IMG/VR virus record: IMGVR_UViG_2593339225_000003 | Coordinates: 48,887 to 112,886 of that record | Source of the DNA: a virus | Taxonomy: Duplodnaviria > Caudoviricetes | Direction: 5' to 3' (one strand) | Length of the DNA: 64,000 nucleotides | Part shown: one piece after another, positions 2,569 through 49,398 of the stretch | Position numbering within the stretch: the first letter of the stretch is position 1 | How the letters are laid out: the number at the start of each line of letters is the position of its first letter | Program-made: the position numbers and the translations under genes | The notes under the pieces: model-generated | What the model was told of the DNA's origin: nothing | The model's input: only the letters and a program-made list of their open reading frames with translations | Database searches by the model: none

Positions 2569-2681
2569 GCGGGAATTGCACAATCAATTACATCTACTCA
2601 TACAACGATTAAATTGTAAAAGCAGATAGTTAGTCTTTTTTATAATGTAGATAATGTAGAAGGATGATTGTGTTTAGCCGC
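2569..2681 (-). ncRNA. Remote copy of the CGGCTA/TCCTTCT structured RNA unit
   Basis: Reverse complement reads GCGGCTAAACACAATCATCCTTCT...TGATTGTGCAATTCCCGC, the same scaffold as the units at 39.9-43.1 kb. Confidence 0.8.
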
Positions 2682-2897: not shown

Positions 2898-4106
2898 CTA
2901 TGAACAAATTTTATGCCTATACCGATATTTACGCTCTTTGTCGATTCTTTTTCTTTCATTGCGATGGCAAGTTTCACAACGAATTTGACGTGAGTGCGCC
3001 GATATAACATATTCTTTGCCACAATCAATACATTTTTGAATTTTGTATCTCTGCAATTTATAGGTTGAACAATAATCGCAATACTTTCTCGTTCTGTTCT
3101 TATTGTTCATAATAAATGAACCACACTTTTCGCACTTTGATACATTTTGATTACCCACATATTCTTCTAAGAGTAAATATATATTTTCATCTATCGTAAA
3201 AGAAGAAATTGTTTTATAAACATCGCAAGCACTTTCGTTAGCACAATAAGGAATACGGTAACGATTCCCATAAATCTCTATGTAACCATCATCCTCTAAT
3301 TGCTTTATTAAATTCTGTCGTTCTTGCTTTTTAACTGATACCTTACCTAATTTACATATTGCAGAATTATTAAATTCAATGTAGTCGCAATTATTGTTTG
3401 ACTTTAGTTTATAATAAATTAATGTTCCAAATGCAATCTTTTTTATTTTTTTATTCTTTATCCCGCAAATATAATTTAGCTCCGACTCGTACAAAGTAAA
3501 CTTTGTATTACCTATAAAATCAACGATTTGAGATTCTGATAAACCATATATTTGGTCAATTAATTCTTGCATAAAAATATTTCTTCTGACATTATTTGTT
3601 AAAAATTTTTCTTTTGCCTTTTTGCTTATTTCAATCAAAATATCTTTAGCTATTGATTTAGAAAATCCATTTAACCGTAAATACATACAATAATACTTCA
3701 ACTTGAAAAGTGTCCGACCTTGCGCCTTAACAAAATCTCTATTAATTTCTGAAATATATTTTTTAGGATTATATATTTCTGGGTGCTTTTTGAAGTTGCC
3801 AGGAGCAACAGCAGAACCAACGGCAATTCCTTCTCCGCCAGTTGCGAGATTATAATACATATCATCATCAATGGCGTTGCGCTTTTTAATTTCTTCTATT
3901 TCCAAATTAAACGCTTCTTCCTCTGAATCACAATGATGCAATATTTCTCTGCGAAAACTATTTCTGCCATATTTTGATATTGCTTTAGCAATTAGCACTC
4001 CACTACCTAAATAATTGTCATCTTCGATACTTTTATCGGTTGAATGTTTTCCAATATATTTCTTGCCATTCACTAAATTGGTAGTTAAATATACATAATG
4101 GTTCAT
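2898..4106 (-). CDS. GIY-YIG nuclease domain fused to a paralogue of the adjacent Zn-ribbon protein
   Basis: N-terminal YVYLTTNLVNGKKYIGKH..YLGSG..YYNLATGG. C-terminal ~270 aa align by eye with ORF 4103..4975. Confidence 0.8.
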   Translation of the reverse strand: MNHYVYLTTNLVNGKKYIGKHSTDKSIEDDNYLGSGVLIAKAISKYGRNSFRREILHHCDSEEEAFNLEIEEIKKRNAIDDDMYYNLATGGEGIAVGSAVAPGNFKKHPEIYNPKKYISEINRDFVKAQGRTLFKLKYYCMYLRLNGFSKSIAKDILIEISKKAKEKFLTNNVRRNIFMQELIDQIYGLSESQIVDFIGNTKFTLYESELNYICGIKNKKIKKIAFGTLIYYKLKSNNNCDYIEFNNSAICKLGKVSVKKQERQNLIKQLEDDGYIEIYGNRYRIPYCANESACDVYKTISSFTIDENIYLLLEEYVGNQNVSKCEKCGSFIMNNKNRTRKYCDYCSTYKLQRYKIQKCIDCGKEYVISAHSRQIRCETCHRNERKRIDKERKYRYRHKICS

Positions 4107-25713: not shown

Positions 25714-25937
25714 CTAAAATAAATAGCAAAAAACTTTTATATTTCTATTGACATTCGCGGAAAACCGTGATATAATAATAAAGACCATTAAGAGTGCGTA
25801 AGGGAACAAGCCCAATGACCGTACACCAACCTACCGAGTGGCAAGGTGGTAATGCTTGTCTGTATCGCTACAATGATATAGAACCAATGGGAATCTTTTA
25901 CACCTCTAATGAGATAAATTAGAGAGGATTTGAAACA

Positions 25938-35054: not shown

Positions 35055-36476
35055 ATGGATGATTTTCAAACACTTACTGATTTTGGGAATCTCTATAATT
35101 CTTACCTTGTTTCGTTAAAAGGCAAAGGTAAGATAAAGAGTGCGGCGAGATTTAATATTATGGCACTCGAAAACCTTTATGTAATGAAGCAACGTCTTTT
35201 AAACCATACATATCGAATTTCGCCGTATTCAGAGTTTGTAGTTAAAGAACCAAAAGAAAGAATTATAAAATCTGGTTCATTTCGCGATAAGGTATTACAA
35301 CATTGTTTATGCGATTATGTGTTGATACCAAAACTTAATAATGAATTTATACTTGATAATTATGCCGGACAGATTGGCAAAGGTACTTTGTTTGGTTTGG
35401 ATAGATTATCGAAGCATCTATTAGATTTCTATTCCGAACGCGGTTGTAATGGTTATATTTTAAAATGTGATATAACTAAATTCTTTTATTCAATTAACCA
35501 TAATGTAATGAAGAAATTGATTAAAGAATTATTTACTGATGAGGATATTCAATGGATTTGTAATTCATTTATTGACAGTGTGGATGGTGATGGTCTACCT
35601 CTCGGAAATCAAAGTAGTCAAGTTTTCGCACTTATATATCTTAACGGTCTTGACCATTACATAACCAAGGAATTAGGTTGCAAGTATTATGGTCGATATA
35701 TGGACGATTTTTATTTACTTTCTGATGATAGAGAATATCTCAAAGAATGTTTGGCTAAAATTAAAAAATATTTGGCTAATCTCAAATTAACATTGAATAA
35801 CAAAACCGAGATTGTTTCAATGAGTAAGGGAATACGATTTCTCGGATTTCATACATATCTTACCGAGGAGGGCAAGATTATCCGCAAACTTAACAGTGAT
35901 AACAAAAGACATATTAAAAAGCGTTTGAGAAAATATGCAAAGTTAGTTTTTGATGGCAGAATGGAGAGAAAACGCTTTAATGAGATATATCAATCGTGGC
36001 GAAATCACGCTTCTCACGGTAATTGTTTTAAACTGATTTATGAAATGGATTTATTTATGGATGAATTAATGAATGAGCAGAAAACAGAATTAAGAATAAT
36101 TATTGCCGGAAGTAGAGATTTCAATGATTACGAATTTCTAAAGAAACAACTGTCTAAATTTATCAAAGACCACCAGAATAGGAGATTTACTATTGTTAGT
36201 GGTGCAGCCCGTGGAGCAGACCAACTCGGAGAGAAATACGCAAGAGAGAAATGTATTCAATTAAAGCGTTTTCCTGCGGACTGGAATAACCTTGGACGGA
36301 GTGCAGGATATATTCGCAATACTCAAATGCTGGATTATATCAAGCAAAATGATTGTGAGGGATATGTATTGGCATTTTGGGATGGTCAGAGCAAGGGAAC
36401 ACGGCATATGATTAAAACCGCCAAAAAAGCGGGAGTGACCGTTGAAATAAAATTTTTCAAAAAAAAATTAATGTAA
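35055..36476 (+). CDS. DGR reverse transcriptase fused to a C-terminal SLOG-family domain
   Basis: KCDITKFF, GLPLGNQSSQ, RYMDDF, FLGF, followed in frame by IIIAGSRDF..SGAARGAD..PADW..RN..FWDGQSKGT. Confidence 0.9.
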   Translation: MDDFQTLTDFGNLYNSYLVSLKGKGKIKSAARFNIMALENLYVMKQRLLNHTYRISPYSEFVVKEPKERIIKSGSFRDKVLQHCLCDYVLIPKLNNEFILDNYAGQIGKGTLFGLDRLSKHLLDFYSERGCNGYILKCDITKFFYSINHNVMKKLIKELFTDEDIQWICNSFIDSVDGDGLPLGNQSSQVFALIYLNGLDHYITKELGCKYYGRYMDDFYLLSDDREYLKECLAKIKKYLANLKLTLNNKTEIVSMSKGIRFLGFHTYLTEEGKIIRKLNSDNKRHIKKRLRKYAKLVFDGRMERKRFNEIYQSWRNHASHGNCFKLIYEMDLFMDELMNEQKTELRIIIAGSRDFNDYEFLKKQLSKFIKDHQNRRFTIVSGAARGADQLGEKYAREKCIQLKRFPADWNNLGRSAGYIRNTQMLDYIKQNDCEGYVLAFWDGQSKGTRHMIKTAKKAGVTVEIKFFKKKLM

Positions 36477-37598: not shown

Positions 37599-37998
37599 GG
37601 GGCTGAAATAGATTCGACAGGGCGCAGAAAACATATAACTTCGCAGGAATGTAACATCCTTAAAGTACATCTTAAAAATAAACGACACTACTGTTGTTAC
37701 GCTTCATCCCGCGCTTTTAGCAGTTCTCGGTCAGAGAGCCGTAGCGTGAGATTCCGATAAGCACCTGCTATTCGGTCTAACTTATCGGACGGAAATAGAA
37801 TAGCAAACAACGGTTTCTTGCCTCCGTAAAAGGTAAGTGTTGGAGTGGGTGTAATTCCTTACATCTCCATTCGTTTCCCGCGAATTAAAACAATGTTGTG
37901 GTTTGCAGATTGCCACGGAGCAAAATCGGCTATTGCGTGAAAAGAGTTAGTGTGGGTATGTGTTTTGGACACGGGTTCGATTCCCGTCAGTTCCACCA
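37599..37998 (+). ncRNA. ssrA: tmRNA
   Basis: 5' GGGGCTGAAATAGATTCGAC, 3' GGGTTCGATTCCCGTCAGTTCCACCA. Likely tag (A)DTTVVTLHPALLAVLGQRAVA*. Confidence 0.9.
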
Positions 37999-39849: not shown

Positions 39850-39925
39850 GTGCGTATAGCAAAATTGGTAATGCACTTGACTTTTAATCAAGAGATTGTC
39901 AGTTCGAGCCTGACTACGCACACCA
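39850..39925 (+). tRNA. tRNA-Lys(UUU)
   Basis: CTTGA-CTTTTAA-TCAAG arm, CCA end. Confidence 0.9.
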
Positions 39926-39927
39926 TA

Positions 39928-40096
39928 GACGGCTATTTGTAATCTTCCTTCTATCATTGGACTGTAAATCCGATACCACTCATAGATTGCAAAATTCCCG
40001 TTACCTTTTTAGCGGCTATGTAGAAACTTCCTTCTTCCGTCTCACATACAGAGGTGGATTTCGACCATATGAAATTATAGTTTTTGCAATTCCCGC
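39928..40096 (+). ncRNA. Two CGGCTA/TCCTTCT structured RNA units (39928-40002, 40012-40096)
   Basis: Conserved scaffold with covarying stems TTTGTAATCT/AGATTGCAAA and TGTAGAAACT/AGTTTTTGCA. Confidence 0.8.
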
Positions 40097-40127
40097 GAAA
40101 TTAAAAAACAAAAAAGGAGAAAAAGAA

Positions 40128-42362
40128 ATGAATGTATTAAATGAAATTTTGTTGAGAAGAAAAAATCAGCTCATTCTCGAAAATGTAAACCCGGATTATG
40201 GACAGACCGACAGTGAAAAGGCAATGGTCGGCGCAATCCTCAAAAATGTTCAGTCACTTGGATTTACGTTTGCCCGCGATGTGCTTGAAATTCTGTTTCA
40301 CTATAACCGCGCGGAGTTAGAGTCATTCTATCGTGACCTCATTCCCGAGTTGAAGAAACTTGTCGGCGCAGACGTTCAGTACAATCCTATGTACCCGAAC
40401 TTCCCGCAGCAGGTAATGGAAGCAAGCGATGCGGAACTGTTCATTAACGCCATTATTCATTATTGGTCGTTTGGAACGCTTCTCCCGCAGTACGAGAAGC
40501 AGGAAAGACTGCCTTTAATTGATGACAATAAAATGACGGTTTTATCGACAGGAAATTGCAAGAACGTAGGCGAAATCTTGCAAAATTTGCTTAAATCTCC
40601 TACAAATCTGTCTGAAAATGACAGAAATGACATAGCAACTTGCATAAAAAATATGCCAAATTATGCAGAATTTTTGCCGGACGAGATTCCGCTCAAAGAA
40701 AACGTTGCTTTCTTGGGAAAACTCATTATTGAGCAAACTCCGATTAAAACCAGCCGAAATATCGAAAAATATTTCAAAACTGCGACAGATGTTCTTCGTT
40801 TGGTCACTGCATTGTCTGACGGCGACATCAGCCTTGCGACAAAGACTCAGTACAGAAACCTTCGTCGAGCAGAACGCAGGATTATAATGAACTTACTTGC
40901 AAATTGCGGAAATATCTTGGAGGATTTGTACTGCTATAAGTATGAGTGGTTGTACATTGGCAAAATGCTCCACGTTGGCGAGTATTGGTATATGAAGAAG
41001 TACAACAACGTCAGAGGTGCTTTCTATACCTTCCGCAACGAGAAGAAGCCTATGTTTATGGCTGGCAAGGTTCAGGCAGCTATTCTCAAAAACGATATGC
41101 TTGAGGCGGCAAATATGCTGAAATCAAGACCCGGCGATTTTGCAAGACAGCTTGACAAGTTGCTCAGAGATAGCGATGAAAAGCACATTGCATATATCAC
41201 GGCTGCGTTTGCGGAAGTCGCGGAGAAAGTTTCAACTCCTGTTCTGTTGCAGGTCAGAGAACACTTTATCGAGCGCAAGGGCGAGAAAATGCCTATAAGA
41301 GTGTTCTTCCCGAAGGGCAATGTTGCAAAAGCTATGGTTATCCCGAATGACCTGCCGGCAATTTCTGTCACCGCTTGTCAGCAAATTGTTGATACTTGCA
41401 ACAAGGCTTTGGTCGCGCAGTTCAAGACGAAAGAGCCTATGGGTAAGGTTTATATCAATCCCGATTTCAAGAACTATCTCGTGCCGTTCAGCCAGAGAAG
41501 CGCAAGTTCCGCGAATAAAATCGTTGTGCGCGGAAGTAAGTTGCCCATCAATCCAAAGGCAAAAGCTGTTCGCGGATTTATTTGGTGGACAAATATGGGT
41601 AGCAATGATATGTACGATGGCAGAGTTGACATTGACCTTTCAGCGGCAATCTATGATGAGAATTGGAACTACGTTGAACACGTTTCCTATACTAATCTCC
41701 GCTCTAAGAAGTACAACGCTTGTCATTCCGGCGACATCACGAACGGCGGGTCTGTAAACGGCGACGGCGTGGCTGAGTTCCTTGATGTGGATATTGATTC
41801 CGTTGCAAGAAATGCAGGAAGATATATCGTCTATCAGGTTTACAGTTTCACAAGGCAGAAGTTCTCTGAAATGCCCAACTGCCGATTCGGTTGGATGGAG
41901 CGTGAGGACGTTGATAGTGGTGAAATCTTTGAACCAAAGACGGTTGAGATGAAGATTGACCTCACTTCCGAGAGTGACGTTGCAATTCCCGTTATCTTCG
42001 ACTGCGTGGAGCGCAAATTCATTTGGTGTGATATGAACCTCCGCATTGCACAGACGAGATTGGGCGGCAATAACCTTGAAAGCAATCTCAAAGGTACAAC
42101 TGCTACTTGCTATGCGCTCACTCATTTCAACAAGCCCAATCTGTATGAGTTGGTTTACCTCAATGCTTTTGCAAGAGGTGAGATAACCACCGACAGAAAC
42201 GCGGCGGATATTATCTTCGACAATGATAAGACGATTCCTTATGAGGTTGTCGAAACCGTTGACGAGGTTACGGGATTACCTTCTCGCACACTCCGCGACA
42301 AAACGGAAGTTCCGATTATAGACAGCTATAACTTCGATTTTCTTGTCGGAGAGCTGTTATAA
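40128..42362 (+). CDS. 744-aa protein with a large helical N-terminal region (possibly TROVE/ROT-like) and a C-terminal TerD-like domain
   Basis: AGGAG RBS before MNVLNE. TerD-type DIDLSA..HSGDIT..EFLDVD..VYSF motifs. Confidence 0.8.
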   Translation: MNVLNEILLRRKNQLILENVNPDYGQTDSEKAMVGAILKNVQSLGFTFARDVLEILFHYNRAELESFYRDLIPELKKLVGADVQYNPMYPNFPQQVMEASDAELFINAIIHYWSFGTLLPQYEKQERLPLIDDNKMTVLSTGNCKNVGEILQNLLKSPTNLSENDRNDIATCIKNMPNYAEFLPDEIPLKENVAFLGKLIIEQTPIKTSRNIEKYFKTATDVLRLVTALSDGDISLATKTQYRNLRRAERRIIMNLLANCGNILEDLYCYKYEWLYIGKMLHVGEYWYMKKYNNVRGAFYTFRNEKKPMFMAGKVQAAILKNDMLEAANMLKSRPGDFARQLDKLLRDSDEKHIAYITAAFAEVAEKVSTPVLLQVREHFIERKGEKMPIRVFFPKGNVAKAMVIPNDLPAISVTACQQIVDTCNKALVAQFKTKEPMGKVYINPDFKNYLVPFSQRSASSANKIVVRGSKLPINPKAKAVRGFIWWTNMGSNDMYDGRVDIDLSAAIYDENWNYVEHVSYTNLRSKKYNACHSGDITNGGSVNGDGVAEFLDVDIDSVARNAGRYIVYQVYSFTRQKFSEMPNCRFGWMEREDVDSGEIFEPKTVEMKIDLTSESDVAIPVIFDCVERKFIWCDMNLRIAQTRLGGNNLESNLKGTTATCYALTHFNKPNLYELVYLNAFARGEITTDRNAADIIFDNDKTIPYEVVETVDEVTGLPSRTLRDKTEVPIIDSYNFDFLVGELL

Positions 42363-42371
42363 TACAATTTG

Positions 42372-43123
42372 GCGGCTAAGAGATTCCATCCTTCTAATGA
42401 TAGGTTCAACTCCTGTTGTAAGTGTGGTTTACAATGTAGGAAACTCAATTTCCGCAATTACACTCATTTTTGCGGCTAAGTGCAATCATCCTTCTATTTT
42501 TACATAATGAAGAAAATAATGCTAACCGTCGTGGTTAGCCCCAAAATTTGATTGCACAATTCCCGCGCTTTAATTCACATCCTGCGGCTAAATCATAACA
42601 TCCTTCTAAAAAAAGAACTTGCGCTTTAGGCGCGACTAAATACATAAGATTTTGTTACGATAATTTCCGCAAAAAAATTAATGTAAATAGCAAAAAACAT
42701 ATTGACAGAAATATCATTCTATGATATAATCTTAAATGTAAGTTAAACAAACTATTGTGGCTAACAAAATTCATCCTTCTACCCGTATGGGAACAAAATT
42801 GGTAGTTTGTCTATTGAATTTTGAATTTCCACTTTTACATAGTTTAATCGGCTAAGAAACATCATCCTTCTAAAAAGTGTTAATCTGTTTGTCGTGGGTT
42901 CGAGTCCCACCACGCTACGAATGTAGGGTGTAGCTCAGTTGGTAGAGCAACAGCGAAAAGTCGATGTTTCAATTTCCGAACAATAATTGAATTTGGGCGG
43001 CTAACGAGTATCATCCTTCTTACAGCTCCAAACTGCAATCGCGGGTTCGATTCCCGCTCATCCAACCTTTGGGTGGTGGTCAAGTGGTAAGACAGCAGTT
43101 ATGTACGATATTCAAATTCCCGC
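42372..43123 (+). ncRNA. Six CGGCTA/TCCTTCT structured RNA units (42372-42455, 42472-42566, 42584-42670, 42757-42832, 42848-42979, 42997-43123)
   Basis: Same scaffold, each with a different self-complementary stem. Internal promoter TTGACA-17-TATAAT at 42702. The last two units contain permuted tRNA domains. Confidence 0.85.
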
Positions 43124-43148: not shown

Positions 43149-43234
43149 GCGGATATGGCGGAATAGGTAGACGCGCGTGATTTAGGTTCACGTGTCCCTG
43201 TGGCGTGTGGGTTCAAGTCCCTCTATCCGCACCA
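43149..43234 (+). tRNA. tRNA-Leu(UAG)
   Basis: CGTGA-TTTAGGT-TCACG arm, long variable arm, CCA. Confidence 0.9.
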
Positions 43235-43806: not shown

Positions 43807-45273
43807 TTGAGTACAGATAAGAAATACTATAAAATTTCACAATATACAATGAAATGCCGACTTTATCCGAATAAAACGGTTGCTAAAGGTTTTGATAAGG
43901 CAATTCAAGCTATTCATTGTTATCATAATTGCCTTTTATACGATATTTTTAATGGAAACATTGAATCTACTGCAAAGCCATATAAGCCAAAAAAGGAATC
44001 AAAGCCTGAGAAAAAGAAAAATGAAAGCGATTTTGATTATCGGCAACGTCTTTACTCTTATGAACAAAAGCAAAAGTACAAAGAGGGCGATATAATTCAT
44101 TTCCCGAATTTGAATTACGCATTTTCCGCAGAGTATAAGAACAAGTTAATCGAAGAACATCCCGTAATCGCTAATGCTCCGGCTTCTGCAATCACAGCAA
44201 AGATTGGTCTTATGTCCGATGTTAAGAAATCGCTCGGCAAACTTCCAATCGAATTTCAGAAACCAAAGTATTATAGCAAGAAAAAGCCAAGACAGAGTTT
44301 TTCTTATCAAGATGTATTAGGTAAATTAGTTGAAACCGATAATAAAAATGTATTGTTTATTAAACTGCCAGAGAAATTTGGCGGCACACGCTCAAATCCT
44401 GCAAAGTGTAAAATTCGCGGTTGGAATAAAAAAATTCGTTTTGATAGATACGGGGAAATAAATTTTATAGATTATTTCAAATCCAATCCAAACAAAAGGA
44501 TTACTATTAAAATCGAAAAGGATAATTGTGGTGATTATTGGATTGTTTTTTCACTGACCAATGTTTATAAGTCAATGGCAAATCCACAAAATACATTTGG
44601 TGGTATTGATGTTGGAATAAAAGATATTGCTATTCTTTCTGATAATACAAAATTTGAAAATCGAAAATTTAAGGATGAAGAAAAACAGCATATTAAATTT
44701 TTGAATAGGCGATTGAGCAGAAGGCAAGGTTGGTCTAACGAAGAATTTAGAGATGGCTATAAGCAGAACAAAGATATGATTGTATCAAAAACATATCAGA
44801 GAACACAGCTTAAACTTTCTAAATTACACAGAAAAATCGCTCGTAAGAGGGAGAACTATAATCATAATATAACCACAAAGATTATAAATACATATTCGTT
44901 CATTGGTATTGAAACTCTGAATGTAACTGGTATGTTTAGAAACAGACATTTATCAAATGCTTTGTCGGATGCCGCTATGGGAGAAATTTTGTCAATGCTT
45001 AAATATAAAGCAGAATGGTATGACAGAATCATTCAACCCATCAGTCAATGGTCGCCATCAAGTAAACGGTGTAGTTGCTGCGGATATATTAGACCAAAGT
45101 TGGGCTTACATATCAGAGAGTGGCAATGTCCAAAATGCGGAACGTTTCACGATAGAGATGTAAATGCCGCAATAAATATTCTTTACTATGCTTTGTTAAT
45201 TTATTACGGCGAAGAAAAAGGCAAAGAAATTTTTGAAAAATTGAATAATAATTTTCAATTATTATGTGCATAG
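43807..45273 (+). CDS. Compact type V (Cas12f/TnpB-like) RNA-guided nuclease
   Basis: 488 aa, RLYP N-terminus, RuvC-I GIDVG, RuvC-II GIETL, SSKRCSCC..CPKC Zn finger, RuvC-III DRDVNAA. Adjacent to a CRISPR array. Confidence 0.85.
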   Translation: MSTDKKYYKISQYTMKCRLYPNKTVAKGFDKAIQAIHCYHNCLLYDIFNGNIESTAKPYKPKKESKPEKKKNESDFDYRQRLYSYEQKQKYKEGDIIHFPNLNYAFSAEYKNKLIEEHPVIANAPASAITAKIGLMSDVKKSLGKLPIEFQKPKYYSKKKPRQSFSYQDVLGKLVETDNKNVLFIKLPEKFGGTRSNPAKCKIRGWNKKIRFDRYGEINFIDYFKSNPNKRITIKIEKDNCGDYWIVFSLTNVYKSMANPQNTFGGIDVGIKDIAILSDNTKFENRKFKDEEKQHIKFLNRRLSRRQGWSNEEFRDGYKQNKDMIVSKTYQRTQLKLSKLHRKIARKRENYNHNITTKIINTYSFIGIETLNVTGMFRNRHLSNALSDAAMGEILSMLKYKAEWYDRIIQPISQWSPSSKRCSCCGYIRPKLGLHIREWQCPKCGTFHDRDVNAAINILYYALLIYYGEEKGKEIFEKLNNNFQLLCA

Positions 45274-46589: not shown

Positions 46590-46667
46590 ACGGGCATAAC
46601 TCAGTTTGATTAGAGTACCTGCTTTGGGAGCAGGGGGTCGCAGGTTTGAGTCCTGTCGCCCGTACCA
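46590..46667 (+). tRNA. tRNA-Pro(UGG)
   Basis: CCTGC-TTTGGGA-GCAGG arm, CCA. Confidence 0.8.
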
Positions 46668-46687
46668 AAATTAAAAGAGGGATTGAA

Positions 46688-47497
46688 ATGAGTAAAAAAT
46701 ACAGTGAGTTCGACAAACGTATGAAAAAGTATGAATATGTCACGCGAACATATTTGACAACACGAACTCCCGCAATCATTAGGATAGATGGCAAAAGTTT
46801 TCATATATTCACCAGAGGGTTTAAGAAACCATTTGATGATGTCCTTTCCAACGCTATGCAAGCAACAATGAAATATCTTTGTGAAAACATTCAAGGTTGC
46901 GTTCTTGGATATACTCAATCAGATGAAATCACATTGGTTTTAGTTGATTATAAGGGTATTGATACTTGTGCTTGGTTTGATTACAACATTCAGAAATGTG
47001 CGAGTGTTGCCGCAAGTATGGCTACATTGGTATTTAAGCAGTTTTTTGATTATCAAAATAATTGTTGGTATGAAAAATCAGATAAGGGTAATTCATTTAC
47101 GAGTTCGGATATAGATATTTATAATCGACATTGCGAAGCACTTTATAATAAAGGTGCAATGTTTGATGCCCGCATTTTCAATATTCCAAAAGAGGAAGTG
47201 TGCAACAACATCTTATGGCAACAACAGGATGCGATACGCAACTCCATCCAAATGGTCGGTCACGCAAATTTCTCCGACAAGCAAATGCACAGCAAAAACA
47301 CAACCGAAATCAAAGAAATGCTTTTGAGTGAAAAGGGCATTAACTGGAATGATTTGCCGACAAAATTTCAGCGCGGGAGTTGTTGTATTAAAACCGTGAA
47401 CGAGCAGACCGGCAGAAGTGAATGGAGAATCGACAATGAAATCCCGATTTTCAAAGGCGAGGGTCGTAACTATATCGAGGGCTTGATTTATGTCTGA
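46688..47497 (+). CDS. tRNA(His) guanylyltransferase Thg1-like protein
   Basis: RIDGKSFH, YTQSDEITL, FDAR, DAIRNSI. Confidence 0.9.
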   Translation: MSKKYSEFDKRMKKYEYVTRTYLTTRTPAIIRIDGKSFHIFTRGFKKPFDDVLSNAMQATMKYLCENIQGCVLGYTQSDEITLVLVDYKGIDTCAWFDYNIQKCASVAASMATLVFKQFFDYQNNCWYEKSDKGNSFTSSDIDIYNRHCEALYNKGAMFDARIFNIPKEEVCNNILWQQQDAIRNSIQMVGHANFSDKQMHSKNTTEIKEMLLSEKGINWNDLPTKFQRGSCCIKTVNEQTGRSEWRIDNEIPIFKGEGRNYIEGLIYV

Positions 47498-48630: not shown

Positions 48631-49398
48631 TTGAATAATATAGGAATAAAGCGAATGAATAATGTTGGGCAAATGATGGAAATTATTGATTATCAAGATT
48701 GTCATAATGTTTTTGTGAAATTTGATGATGGAACGATTGTAAAATGCAGTATGAATAGTTTCCGGGCTGGTGGAGTAAAAAATCCTAATAGCATTTCTGT
48801 TTGCGGAGTAGGAATTGTCGGGAATAAATATCCTATTCGTGAAAATAAACAACTTTGTAAAGAATATTTAGTTTGGTCAAAAATGTTGGAAAGATGCTAT
48901 AAGAATAATAGAAGCAATAAAAATAAATCATACATTGGATGTTCTGTTTGCAAAGAATGGTTGTATTATCCGAATTTTTACGAATGGTTACATAGTCAAT
49001 CAAATTATGAAAAGTGGAAAACAGAAAAATATACGATTGACAAAGATATTATACAAAAGGGAAATAAAATATATGAACCTTCAAAATGTTGTTTAGTGCC
49101 ATATTATATAAATCTGTTGCTTACCAATCACAAAAGCGCGAGAGGCGAATATCCAGTTGGTGTAATTTATAATAAAAGAGATGATTGTTTCGATGTGATA
49201 GTTAATGATGGCATATTGACTGATAAGAAAAAAATTCATTTATATGGATTTCAAAATCCAACTATTGCATTTTATAAATATAAAGAATTAAAAGAAAAAA
49301 TAATCAAAGAAAGAGCAAAACAAGAATTTGAACTCAAAAATATAACGGAAGATTGTTATAACGCATTATTAAGATATAAGATAGAAATAACAGATTGA
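48631..49398 (+). CDS. Homing-endonuclease-like protein (HNH-type, DKDI motif)
   Basis: W..ML.RCY, VCKEW..Y.NF, IDKDI, CCLVP..IN, AP2-like tail. Confidence 0.7.
   Translation: MNNIGIKRMNNVGQMMEIIDYQDCHNVFVKFDDGTIVKCSMNSFRAGGVKNPNSISVCGVGIVGNKYPIRENKQLCKEYLVWSKMLERCYKNNRSNKNKSYIGCSVCKEWLYYPNFYEWLHSQSNYEKWKTEKYTIDKDIIQKGNKIYEPSKCCLVPYYINLLLTNHKSARGEYPVGVIYNKRDDCFDVIVNDGILTDKKKIHLYGFQNPTIAFYKYKELKEKIIKERAKQEFELKNITEDCYNALLRYKIEITD

Follow-up and report, generated by a model that had tools for sequence, protein, structure and literature searches.

Structured small RNAs flanking the gene of a TerD-like protein in a phage tRNA array: a candidate Ro-independent, Y-RNA-like particle

The stretch of DNA considered here, called the window in the following, is a 64-kb piece (64,000 nucleotides, nt) of the IMG/VR virus record IMGVR_UViG_2593339225_000003 (positions 48,887 to 112,886) and corresponds to C75:143375-207374 of a 2.54-Mb assembly of 81 contigs that is 100% complete. 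It is phage-like, with PHROG matches to DNA ligase, sliding clamp, integrase and methyltransferase, and carries 18 tRNA genes and one transfer-messenger RNA (tmRNA); the sequences most closely related to it are viral contigs from IMG/VR, 55-161 kb in length. Within its tRNA gene array lies the gene of a protein of 744 amino acids (aa), P0001 (40128..42362, plus strand), flanked by short units of common form that are interleaved with tRNA genes on one strand. A preliminary description of the window had placed eight such units around the gene, two upstream and six downstream, and this is how they are arranged, spanning 39929-43123. Of the length range it gave, the upper end of 132 nt stands, while the shortest unit measures 73 nt and not 75 nt. 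These units and the adjacent gene, together referred to as the module, are the subject of this study.

The array units are labelled W1-W8, and a distant minus-strand copy W9. All share the form NNGGCUA / stem / UCCUUCU / cargo / stem' / AUUYCCNN, a constant handle that encloses a variable cargo, and scores are given below for R1, a covariance model built from 22 units. W1 (39929..40001, plus strand, 56.5 bits) begins directly behind a tRNA-Lys(UUU) gene called by ARAGORN (39850..39925, plus strand, ending 3 nt before the unit), an arrangement found in seven loci (the window, L002, L003, L006, L007, L025 and L027). Its cargo is a hairpin with a 6-bp stem and a 7-nt loop, CUGUAAA, which has the shape of the tRNA-Tyr anticodon loop. 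W2 (40012..40096, plus strand, 52.2 bits) carries two cargo hairpins on its handle. Downstream of the gene and likewise on the plus strand, W3 (42372..42455, 63.9 bits) combines a T-loop-like hairpin (UUCAACU) with a second hairpin, W4 (42472..42566, 58.8 bits) holds a 7-bp hairpin, GCUAACC/GGUUAGC, followed by CCCA, and W5 (42584..42670, 57.4 bits) a hairpin with the 7-nt loop CUUUAGG. W6 (42757..42832, 64.6 bits) closes with the terminal helix GUGG/CCAC. The two longest cargos belong to W7 (42848..42979, 61.8 bits) and W8 (42997..43123; 19.2 bits against Rfam YrlA), each of which bears a circularly permuted tRNA-like body. A tRNA-Leu(UAG) gene (43149..43234, plus strand) follows W8 directly. 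W9 (2569..2681, minus strand, 57.1 bits) lies 37 kb away, 5' of genes for tRNA-Glu, Tyr and Asp that cluster on the minus strand. Two side observations belong here. The W4 cargo hairpin was scored as terminator-like on the opposite strand (42521-42539, minus strand), and on the plus strand its 7-bp helix followed by CCCA recalls an acceptor minihelix with N-CCA. Beside W9 and its tRNA cluster lies a gene for a SegE-like GIY-YIG homing endonuclease (2898-4106, minus strand).

Nine copies of the core pattern, GGCTA-N7-11-TCCTTCT, are present in the window where 0.02 would be expected, and none of 100 shuffled sequences reached this count. Unconstrained minimum-free-energy (MFE) folding recovered the terminal helix and the variable stem in all nine units; the stems of W3 and W5 contain one mismatch each, and W1, W2 and W8 make use of G-U pairs. 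Aligning 22 units from the window and related phages, we found the two helices paired in 89.9% of cells, compared with 61.4% after column shuffling, and 87 double-sided changes compared with 26.9, a value matched by none of 500 shuffles; slid registers gave 36-52%. The same holds for 116 independent units from 56 other loci, none of which had been used for building R1. Here 95.9% of cells are paired (60.8% shuffled) and 547 double-sided changes occur (157 shuffled, matched in 0 of 500, slid registers at most 55.7%), in an alignment that is fitted to the model and so leans towards structure, with invariant anchors that fix its register. All eight stem pairs quoted in the preliminary description do pair, and its conclusion that their covariation implies selection on RNA structure is borne out by both alignments.

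The resulting consensus reads NNGGCUAU, variable stem, C-U, UCCUUCU(A), loop, A-G, variable stem, R(A/C)UUUCCNN; the 5' motif continues as GGCUAU in 98 of the 116 units and as GGCUAA in eight. Units from bacterial chromosomes are minimal hairpins of 55-68 nt. Scans of Rfam 15, both at gathering thresholds and by E-value, placed no family on the handle, which answers the check for known families that had been proposed for these units. The units are confirmed as a structured RNA family under selection.

If the RNA and the protein belong together, they should be found together in other genomes, and the preliminary description had named a lack of such linkage as what would count against it. Such linkage was found. 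In 11 viral contigs with homologues of P0001 at 52-96% identity the exact motif was present each time, always on the strand of the gene. R1 gave 90 matches in the window and these contigs combined, 89 of them on the gene's strand and flanking it, the exception being W9; the 81 matches in the viral loci alone are all on that strand. A second set was drawn from 448 relatives of the protein in species-representative genomes, from which the best 80 loci were kept. At E<=0.01, R1 gave 154 matches, which come from 77 of the 80 loci and without exception share the orientation of the gene; almost every one is a few hundred bases or less away from it. Two loci missed by the model (L034 and L060) each yielded a unit to a regular expression, so that a single locus of the 80 is left with no detected unit. 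The hosts include cultured Paenibacillus, Priestia megaterium, Niallia, Heyndrickxia and Neobacillus as well as Clostridia known from gut metagenome-assembled genomes (MAGs). The side on which the units lie varies: they are downstream of the gene in Niallia, Heyndrickxia and Lachnospiraceae, and upstream in Paenibacillus.

Across the whole 2.54-Mb genome, the only R1 matches are the nine of the window. Neither the RNA nor the gene was found in any of 40 related genomes, of which 24 belong to the same genus and 16 to the same order; together with the unrelated neighbours in bacterial loci, this describes a patchy, mobile distribution of the gene. A recurring neighbour gene was sought around the window, two viral and two bacterial loci, and none was found, which argues that RNA and protein constitute the whole module.

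Homologues of the protein, all annotated as hypothetical, also occur in isolated phages, where the handle takes variant forms (read by eye and by MFE folding only). Xanthomonas phage XacN1 (26% identity) has three upstream units of the form GGCCA / stem / UCCUUCU ... CUUUCC, with a best R1 E-value of 2e-5. Mycobacterium phage WXIN (25%) has five upstream units, CAGGCUC / stem / CYUUCA ... UUUCCCUG, and Rhodococcus phage Weasels2 (33%) has four downstream units, AGGMUYAAR / stem / UACUUCY ... GCUCRCCU, the third of which bears a permuted tRNA body (26.4 bits against Rfam YrlA). An architecture that is kept while its conserved letters change along with the protein would be expected of an interface at which protein and RNA co-evolve.

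Inverted repeats that recur in the non-coding DNA among tRNA genes, with a TnpB-like gene nearby, might also be chance repeats or elements that act at the level of DNA, such as REP-like (repetitive extragenic palindromic) sequences or recombination sites. Yet nine motif matches where 0.02 are expected, and covariation far above shuffled and slid controls, do not fit chance, and the orientation is strict, with all 81 viral-locus and 154 genome-locus matches on the gene's strand and W9 as the only unit on the minus strand. Moreover, G-U and U-G pairs are common in the 116 units (for instance, UG 47 and UG 36 times at two of the pairs), and each would be an A-C mismatch on the other strand. The frequent G-U pairs and the strict orientation therefore point to an RNA read from the gene's strand rather than to a DNA structure, and we give chance repeats or DNA-level elements a negligible probability.

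A reading at the RNA level that competes more seriously is that the units act in cis, as elements of the mRNA made from the gene itself, for example autoregulatory binding sites of the protein, signals for stability or processing, or a ligand-sensing leader, and not independent small RNAs. The bacterial loci lend themselves to it, since their units always lie in the leader or trailer of the gene, on its strand. Paenibacillus carries them in the 5' leader, Niallia taxi has two between the stop codon and a terminator-like hairpin with a run of T, and in L059 a tandem pair of hairpins just upstream of the start codon is typical of leaders. In addition, UCCUUCU could, judging from its sequence, pair with a purine-rich Shine-Dalgarno-like AGGAGGA. 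The occurrence of units on either side of the gene across loci weakens the case for a riboswitch or 5' leader, however, and the phage arrays do so further, as they bear tRNA bodies and are interleaved with tRNA genes. In the window, W9 heads a tRNA cluster 37 kb away, and W6-W8 have a consensus sigma-70 promoter of their own (42702..42730, plus strand; TTGACA, a spacer of 17 nt, TG-TATAAT), 27 nt upstream of W6. This site, a consensus match only, agrees at 12 of 12 positions and is the only one to do so between 36500 and 47000. The interchangeable cargo described below is likewise something that a leader element does not need. Taken together, we regard the cis-acting explanation as unlikely. 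Between W8 and the tRNA-Leu at 43149 no terminator-like site was found on the plus strand, and the tRNA-Leu(UAG) probably shares a transcript with W6-W8. The positions of the units, on the same strand in leader, trailer or tRNA array, suggest that the RNAs are made together with the gene or with the tRNAs.

A single protein gene with an array of small structured RNAs next to it and in the same orientation, the gene having a patchy and mobile distribution (0 of 40 relatives) and unrelated neighbours in bacteria, is also reminiscent of type III toxin-antitoxin systems or of other defence and anti-defence pairs, in which the RNA array would neutralise the adjacent protein or be processed by it. 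Systems of the ToxIN type consist of near-identical tandem RNA repeats upstream of an endoribonuclease toxin. The units described here differ from each other in stem and cargo and are found on both sides of the gene, Foldseek detected no nuclease fold in the protein, and the protein matches no PADLOC model. We consider a pair of this kind improbable, more so than the cis-acting explanation.

The protein itself was analyzed by structure prediction and profile searches. An AlphaFold2 model based on 64 sequences (predicted local distance difference test, pLDDT, 92.1; predicted template-modelling score 0.89) divides P0001 into an alpha-helical repeat domain comprising residues 1 to about 440, a TerD-like beta-sandwich at about 470-640 and a small alpha/beta domain at 650-744. 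At E<=1e-3, Foldseek matched TerD structures alone in the PDB (3ibz, 2kxt, 2qz7 and 2qng), with E-values of 3.7e-6 to 6.2e-5, target template-modelling (TM) scores of 0.67-0.73 and a probability of 1.00. A profile search against TerD 2kxt reached E 0.069 and aligned the DxDxS (DiDlS) and SGD motifs. Across the 64 sequences D501, D503, H533, S534, G535 and D536 are invariant and S505 is nearly so (at least 90%); numerous arginines and lysines are invariant or near-invariant in the family as well. Modelled separately, the N-terminal 460 residues reached a pLDDT of 91.4, and the best matches were designed circular repeat proteins and generic solenoids at TM scores of at most 0.22. A structure search of BFVD returned only the protein's own family. 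The TerD domain named in the preliminary description is thus upheld at the level of the predicted fold, and the N-terminal helical domain would be novel.

The family is a large one in sequence databases, where it fills 2,859 clusters at 50% identity (E<=1e-3), and some sources label relatives as 'TerD family protein'. P0001 matches PHROG 33734, of unknown function, while Pfam at E<=1 returned neither TerD nor TROVE (PF05731) and only a spurious M11L. NCBIfam model NF041916, the 'MXAN_6230/SCO0854 family RING domain-containing protein', is matched at 387.6 bits (cut-off 600; E 1.2e-115) in three segments covering model positions 2-755. Homology is clear over most of the length, and going by this score, P0001 is a relative of NF041916 and not its equivalog. 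A match to NF041916 below the cut-off also exists in Deinococcus radiodurans, the classic organism for Rsr (Ro60) and Y RNA, which may hold both Ro60 and a relative of P0001.

Kinship with Ro60 was considered in several ways, because the preliminary description had called the protein 'TROVE-like', and this label had to be abandoned. Whereas a genuine bacterial Ro60 of the same phylum scores 54.7 bits against PF05731 with the same tool, P0001 has no match at E<=1. No Ro60 appeared among the Foldseek matches listed for the full model and for residues 1-460, nor in BFVD, and the C-terminal part of the protein is TerD-like and not vWA. Comparing the 64-sequence family with three bacterial Ro60 proteins by hhalign gave a probability of 0.2% (E 0.28); the Ro60 profile is shallow, consisting of three same-phylum proteins with confirmed TROVE and vWA_Ro60 domains, and at that depth a very remote kinship could escape notice. 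PDB sequence searches gave no support either, and a protein atlas returned only unnamed or TerD-named viral clusters with scores of at most 0.88.

The cargos connect the module to tRNA. Against Rfam YrlA (RF02553), W7 scores 44.3 bits (E 7.6e-8) and is aligned at the tRNA-like core, the columns of the Rsr-binding stem in the model being deleted. From the 5' side, the handle of W7 and a linker are followed by CUGUU, UGUC, a T arm (GUGGG-UUCGAGU-CCCAC), CACGCUA and a loop; the 3' part continues with UAGGGUG, UA, a D arm (GCUC-AGUUGGUA-GAGC), A, ACAG, a linker and the handle. These elements correspond to an anticodon-stem equivalent, a variable loop, a T arm, a closed acceptor stem and a D arm. 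In this order of elements, W7 holds a complete tRNA body whose acceptor end is closed and whose opening lies in the anticodon loop. YrlA has the same design, a tRNA body permuted at the anticodon loop, as described in PMC4201824, which also warns of a 'dimeric tRNA' artefact. W7 is not such an artefact, because ARAGORN calls no tRNA there or within any other unit. The arrangement recurs: in 19 of 20 long units from the window and the viral loci, a 5-bp T arm lies 44-56 nt from the start of the unit and precedes the D-arm region.

Smaller pieces of tRNA are displayed as well. Counting 5-bp stems with 7-nt loops in the cargos of 179 units, we found 41 loops of the form Y-U-NNN-R-N, compared with 3.1 on average, and never more than 12, in 200 shuffles. 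These comprise 16 T loops and 25 anticodon-like loops, the latter including orthologous units of related phages and hence not independent events. CUUUUAA, the loop of Lys(UUU), leads with nine occurrences, spread over five different stems, followed by UUUGGGA (Pro) with four and CUGCAAA (Cys) with three; CUGUAAA (Tyr; W1) and further loops seen once each complete the set. T-loop cargos in the genome loci are confined to gut MAG or phage-like loci (13 of 116 units).

How quickly these cargos change can be followed unit by unit in L001, a related phage whose protein is 96% identical to P0001. Handles and spacers are nearly identical to those of the window, and it is the cargos that differ. Those of W2 and W6 have been replaced; the orthologue of W6 keeps the stem around another cargo with a CUUUUAA loop. 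The orthologue of W7 lacks the T arm and its stem is re-paired, and the closed acceptor stem of W8 shows compensatory changes. The 73-nt W1 differs at a single position, 39968, the middle base of the anticodon-like triplet (GUA compared with GCA, hence CUGUAAA and CUGCAAA). The idea of an interchangeable RNA cargo, voiced in the preliminary description, agrees with these replacements, and they suggest that the displayed part of the RNAs evolves fast. The permuted YrlA-type domains of W7 and W8, the location in a tRNA array and the occurrence in bacterial chromosomes, on the other hand, had not been anticipated there.

With the T arm placed before the D-arm region in 19 of 20 long units and the module embedded in tRNA arrays, one could take the long units for genes or precursors of circularly permuted tRNAs, with the handle as a signal for processing or ligation and the protein as a maturation factor. 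According to PMC4201824, RNase P cuts the YrlA of M. smegmatis, to which CCA is also added. The gene of a Thg1-like enzyme of tRNA repair, moreover, lies 3.5 kb downstream of the module. Most units have no tRNA body, though (103 of the 116 genome-locus units are without a T loop, and bacterial units are hairpins of 55-68 nt), and in those that do, the handle occupies the position of the anticodon loop. Neither Pfam nor Foldseek detected a nuclease or ligase domain in the protein, and ARAGORN calls no tRNA in the units. A pathway for permuted tRNAs appears to us a poor explanation, with a probability close to that of a toxin-antitoxin-like pair and marginally above it.

Several further genes and RNAs near the module deserve mention in their own right. 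A gene 3.4 kb upstream, before the tRNA and tmRNA array (35055-36476, plus strand), encodes a 473-aa reverse transcriptase (RVT_1, E 7.5e-18) fused to a YAcAr/SLOG domain (E 4e-16), with its best PADLOC matches among RT and DRT classes. The tmRNA gene (37599-37998, plus strand; Rfam 76.9 bits) lies within the tRNA array, and in the related record MT835874 the units likewise have a tmRNA for a neighbour. A short way downstream of the module, still in the array, is a TnpB/Cas12f-like gene (43807-45273, plus strand; OrfB_IS605 and a Cas12f1-like TNB domain), and beside a tRNA-Pro lies the gene for the Thg1-like tRNA-His guanylyltransferase/3'-5' polymerase (46646-47497, plus strand; Pfam Thg1, E 2.8e-28). 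The reverse transcriptase/SLOG, TnpB and Thg1 genes were considered as partners of the module and set aside, as they were not seen in the other loci examined. An S-adenosylmethionine riboswitch (RF00162, 45.3 bits, gathering score 44.4) is found at 25785-25890 (plus strand) in a phage-like region.

We favour the reading, to which we assign a probability of roughly 60%, that the units are genes of a new family of small structured RNAs that form a particle with the adjacent 744-aa protein. Such a particle would best be described as Ro-independent and Y-RNA-like, resembling Ro60/Y-RNA in layout and not in ancestry. The 5' and 3' ends of each RNA close into a 4-bp helix, NNGG/CCNN, followed by a conserved internal loop of CUA opposite (A/C)UUU, a stem of 7-10 bp that is free in sequence and closed by an invariant C-G pair, and a single-stranded UCCUUCU. 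From this invariance we infer that the protein may bind at three sites, namely the terminal helix together with the pyrimidine-rich internal loop, the C-G pair that closes the stem, and UCCUUCU, and the units would presumably be processed into discrete RNAs. The remaining apical loop would serve as a free slot for modules. In bacterial chromosomes this slot is short, and one or two hairpins would be co-transcribed with the gene; in large phages the module sits inside the tRNA array and has expanded to as many as nine RNAs, the number in the window, with slots that display anticodon-permuted whole tRNA bodies, T arms and the stem-loops of anticodons. In Ro60/Y RNA particles, according to PMC4201824 and PMC12135203, the RNA gates the protein or tethers it to other factors, and by analogy the RNA may gate or tether P0001. 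In phages, the tRNA mimics on display would then recruit enzymes that bind tRNA, or soak them up.

The parallels with Y RNA on which this analogy draws are several. In both cases a number of small RNAs are encoded beside the protein gene, and paired 5' and 3' ends form a conserved interrupted helix that is the protein handle (putatively so in the module) with a variable part on top, as laid out in PMC4201824 and PMC12135203. The same papers show that YrlA, like W7, joins a tRNA-like domain of T arm, closed acceptor-like stem and D arm to the handle via the position of the anticodon stem. At least one tRNA-like RNA is present per phage, again as in Y RNA systems. The differences are equally clear. 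The module protein is not TROVE plus vWA, and the 2.54-Mb genome of the window contains no TROVE or Ro60 gene. The motif GNCGAAN0-1G (CGAA) near the 5' end, given as the Ro-binding site of YrlA-type RNAs in PMC4201824, is missing from the module handle, which instead has GGCUA(U/A), UCCUUCU and UUUCC; the minor form GGCUAA is one position off GNCGAA, which is a resemblance only. Arrays of up to nine RNAs with anticodon-loop mimics among their cargos also set the module apart from Y RNA. It differs from the TerD family, too, whose members, encoded in ter operons, have about 190 aa and a single domain, as the TerD-like domain here is the middle of a 744-aa protein and no ter genes were found near the module among the neighbours in the window and in the bacterial loci examined.

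A number of observations weigh against a particle of this kind. P0001 has no recognised RNA-binding domain, its N-terminal 460-residue model has no PDB match at E<=1e-3 in Foldseek, and TerD domains are described in PMC7159879 as binding metal or nucleotide derivatives and not RNA. The YrlA gathering score of 69 is reached by neither W7 (44.3) nor W8 (19.2), and the dependence among the anticodon-like loops noted above reduces what their number can say. Constant adjacency on the same strand fits cis-acting elements of the untranslated regions equally well. Finally, L091 (Bacillus toyonensis CP170571.1), the locus left over in the linkage analysis, has the gene and no unit within 3 kb by model or regular expression.

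A bolder version of the particle hypothesis, which we put forward tentatively and think doubtful, extends it to function. It holds that the module would be a second, Ro60-independent lineage of Y-RNA type that joins an undescribed family of RNA-binding proteins, with helical and TerD-like domains, to a universal RNA handle. This lineage would be common across Firmicutes and across the large phages that infect Firmicutes, Actinobacteria and Proteobacteria, and phages would have turned it into a programmable display array in which each RNA shows an anticodon loop of Lys, Pro, Cys, Tyr or another tRNA, a T arm, or a whole tRNA body. These parts could act as decoys or tethers directed at host tRNA-targeting defences or tRNA enzymes, with the turnover of cargos reflecting an arms race. 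tRNAs such as Lys(UUU) and Tyr(GUA) are targets of anticodon nucleases. The loops on display agree with the anticodon loops of such tRNAs, and the module, like the tRNAs by which phages respond to such enzymes, is located in a phage tRNA array. As phage tRNAs counter tRNA-cleaving defences (PMC10264068, PMC11464382 and PMC11555353), the arrays might similarly serve as decoys or tethers for tRNA-binding enzymes. Unlike phage tRNAs, the module RNAs consist of a stem-loop or a permuted body carried by a protein handle, and their use as decoys is hypothetical.

The handle appears to be new, and so does the protein. A literature search that did not extend to supplements, where the tables of Chen et al. 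2014 could bear on novelty, found nothing on SCO0854/MXAN_6230, on a UCCUUCU/TCCTTCT handle or on TerD with RNA. No publication linking 'Y RNA' and TerD was found either; PMC7824862 treats both, in unrelated sections. Two genome-language-model preprints of 2026 contain no mention of tellurite, Y RNA, Ro60, tRNA-like, TROVE or YrlA.

If correct, the favoured reading would add a new RNA family and a new family of RNA-binding proteins that together make up one particle. The module is present in cultivable bacteria (Priestia megaterium, Paenibacillus and Niallia) and in isolated phages (Weasels2, LpeD, WXIN and XacN1), which makes it directly testable. The handle would offer a natural, portable scaffold for the display of RNA modules, and the phage arrays of anticodon loops and tRNA bodies suggest a new kind of move in the conflict between phage and host over tRNA. 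It would also mean that the Y-RNA design, a protein handle joined to a tRNA mimic, arose or persists without Ro60, and this bears on the question of what tRNA-like Y RNAs are for.

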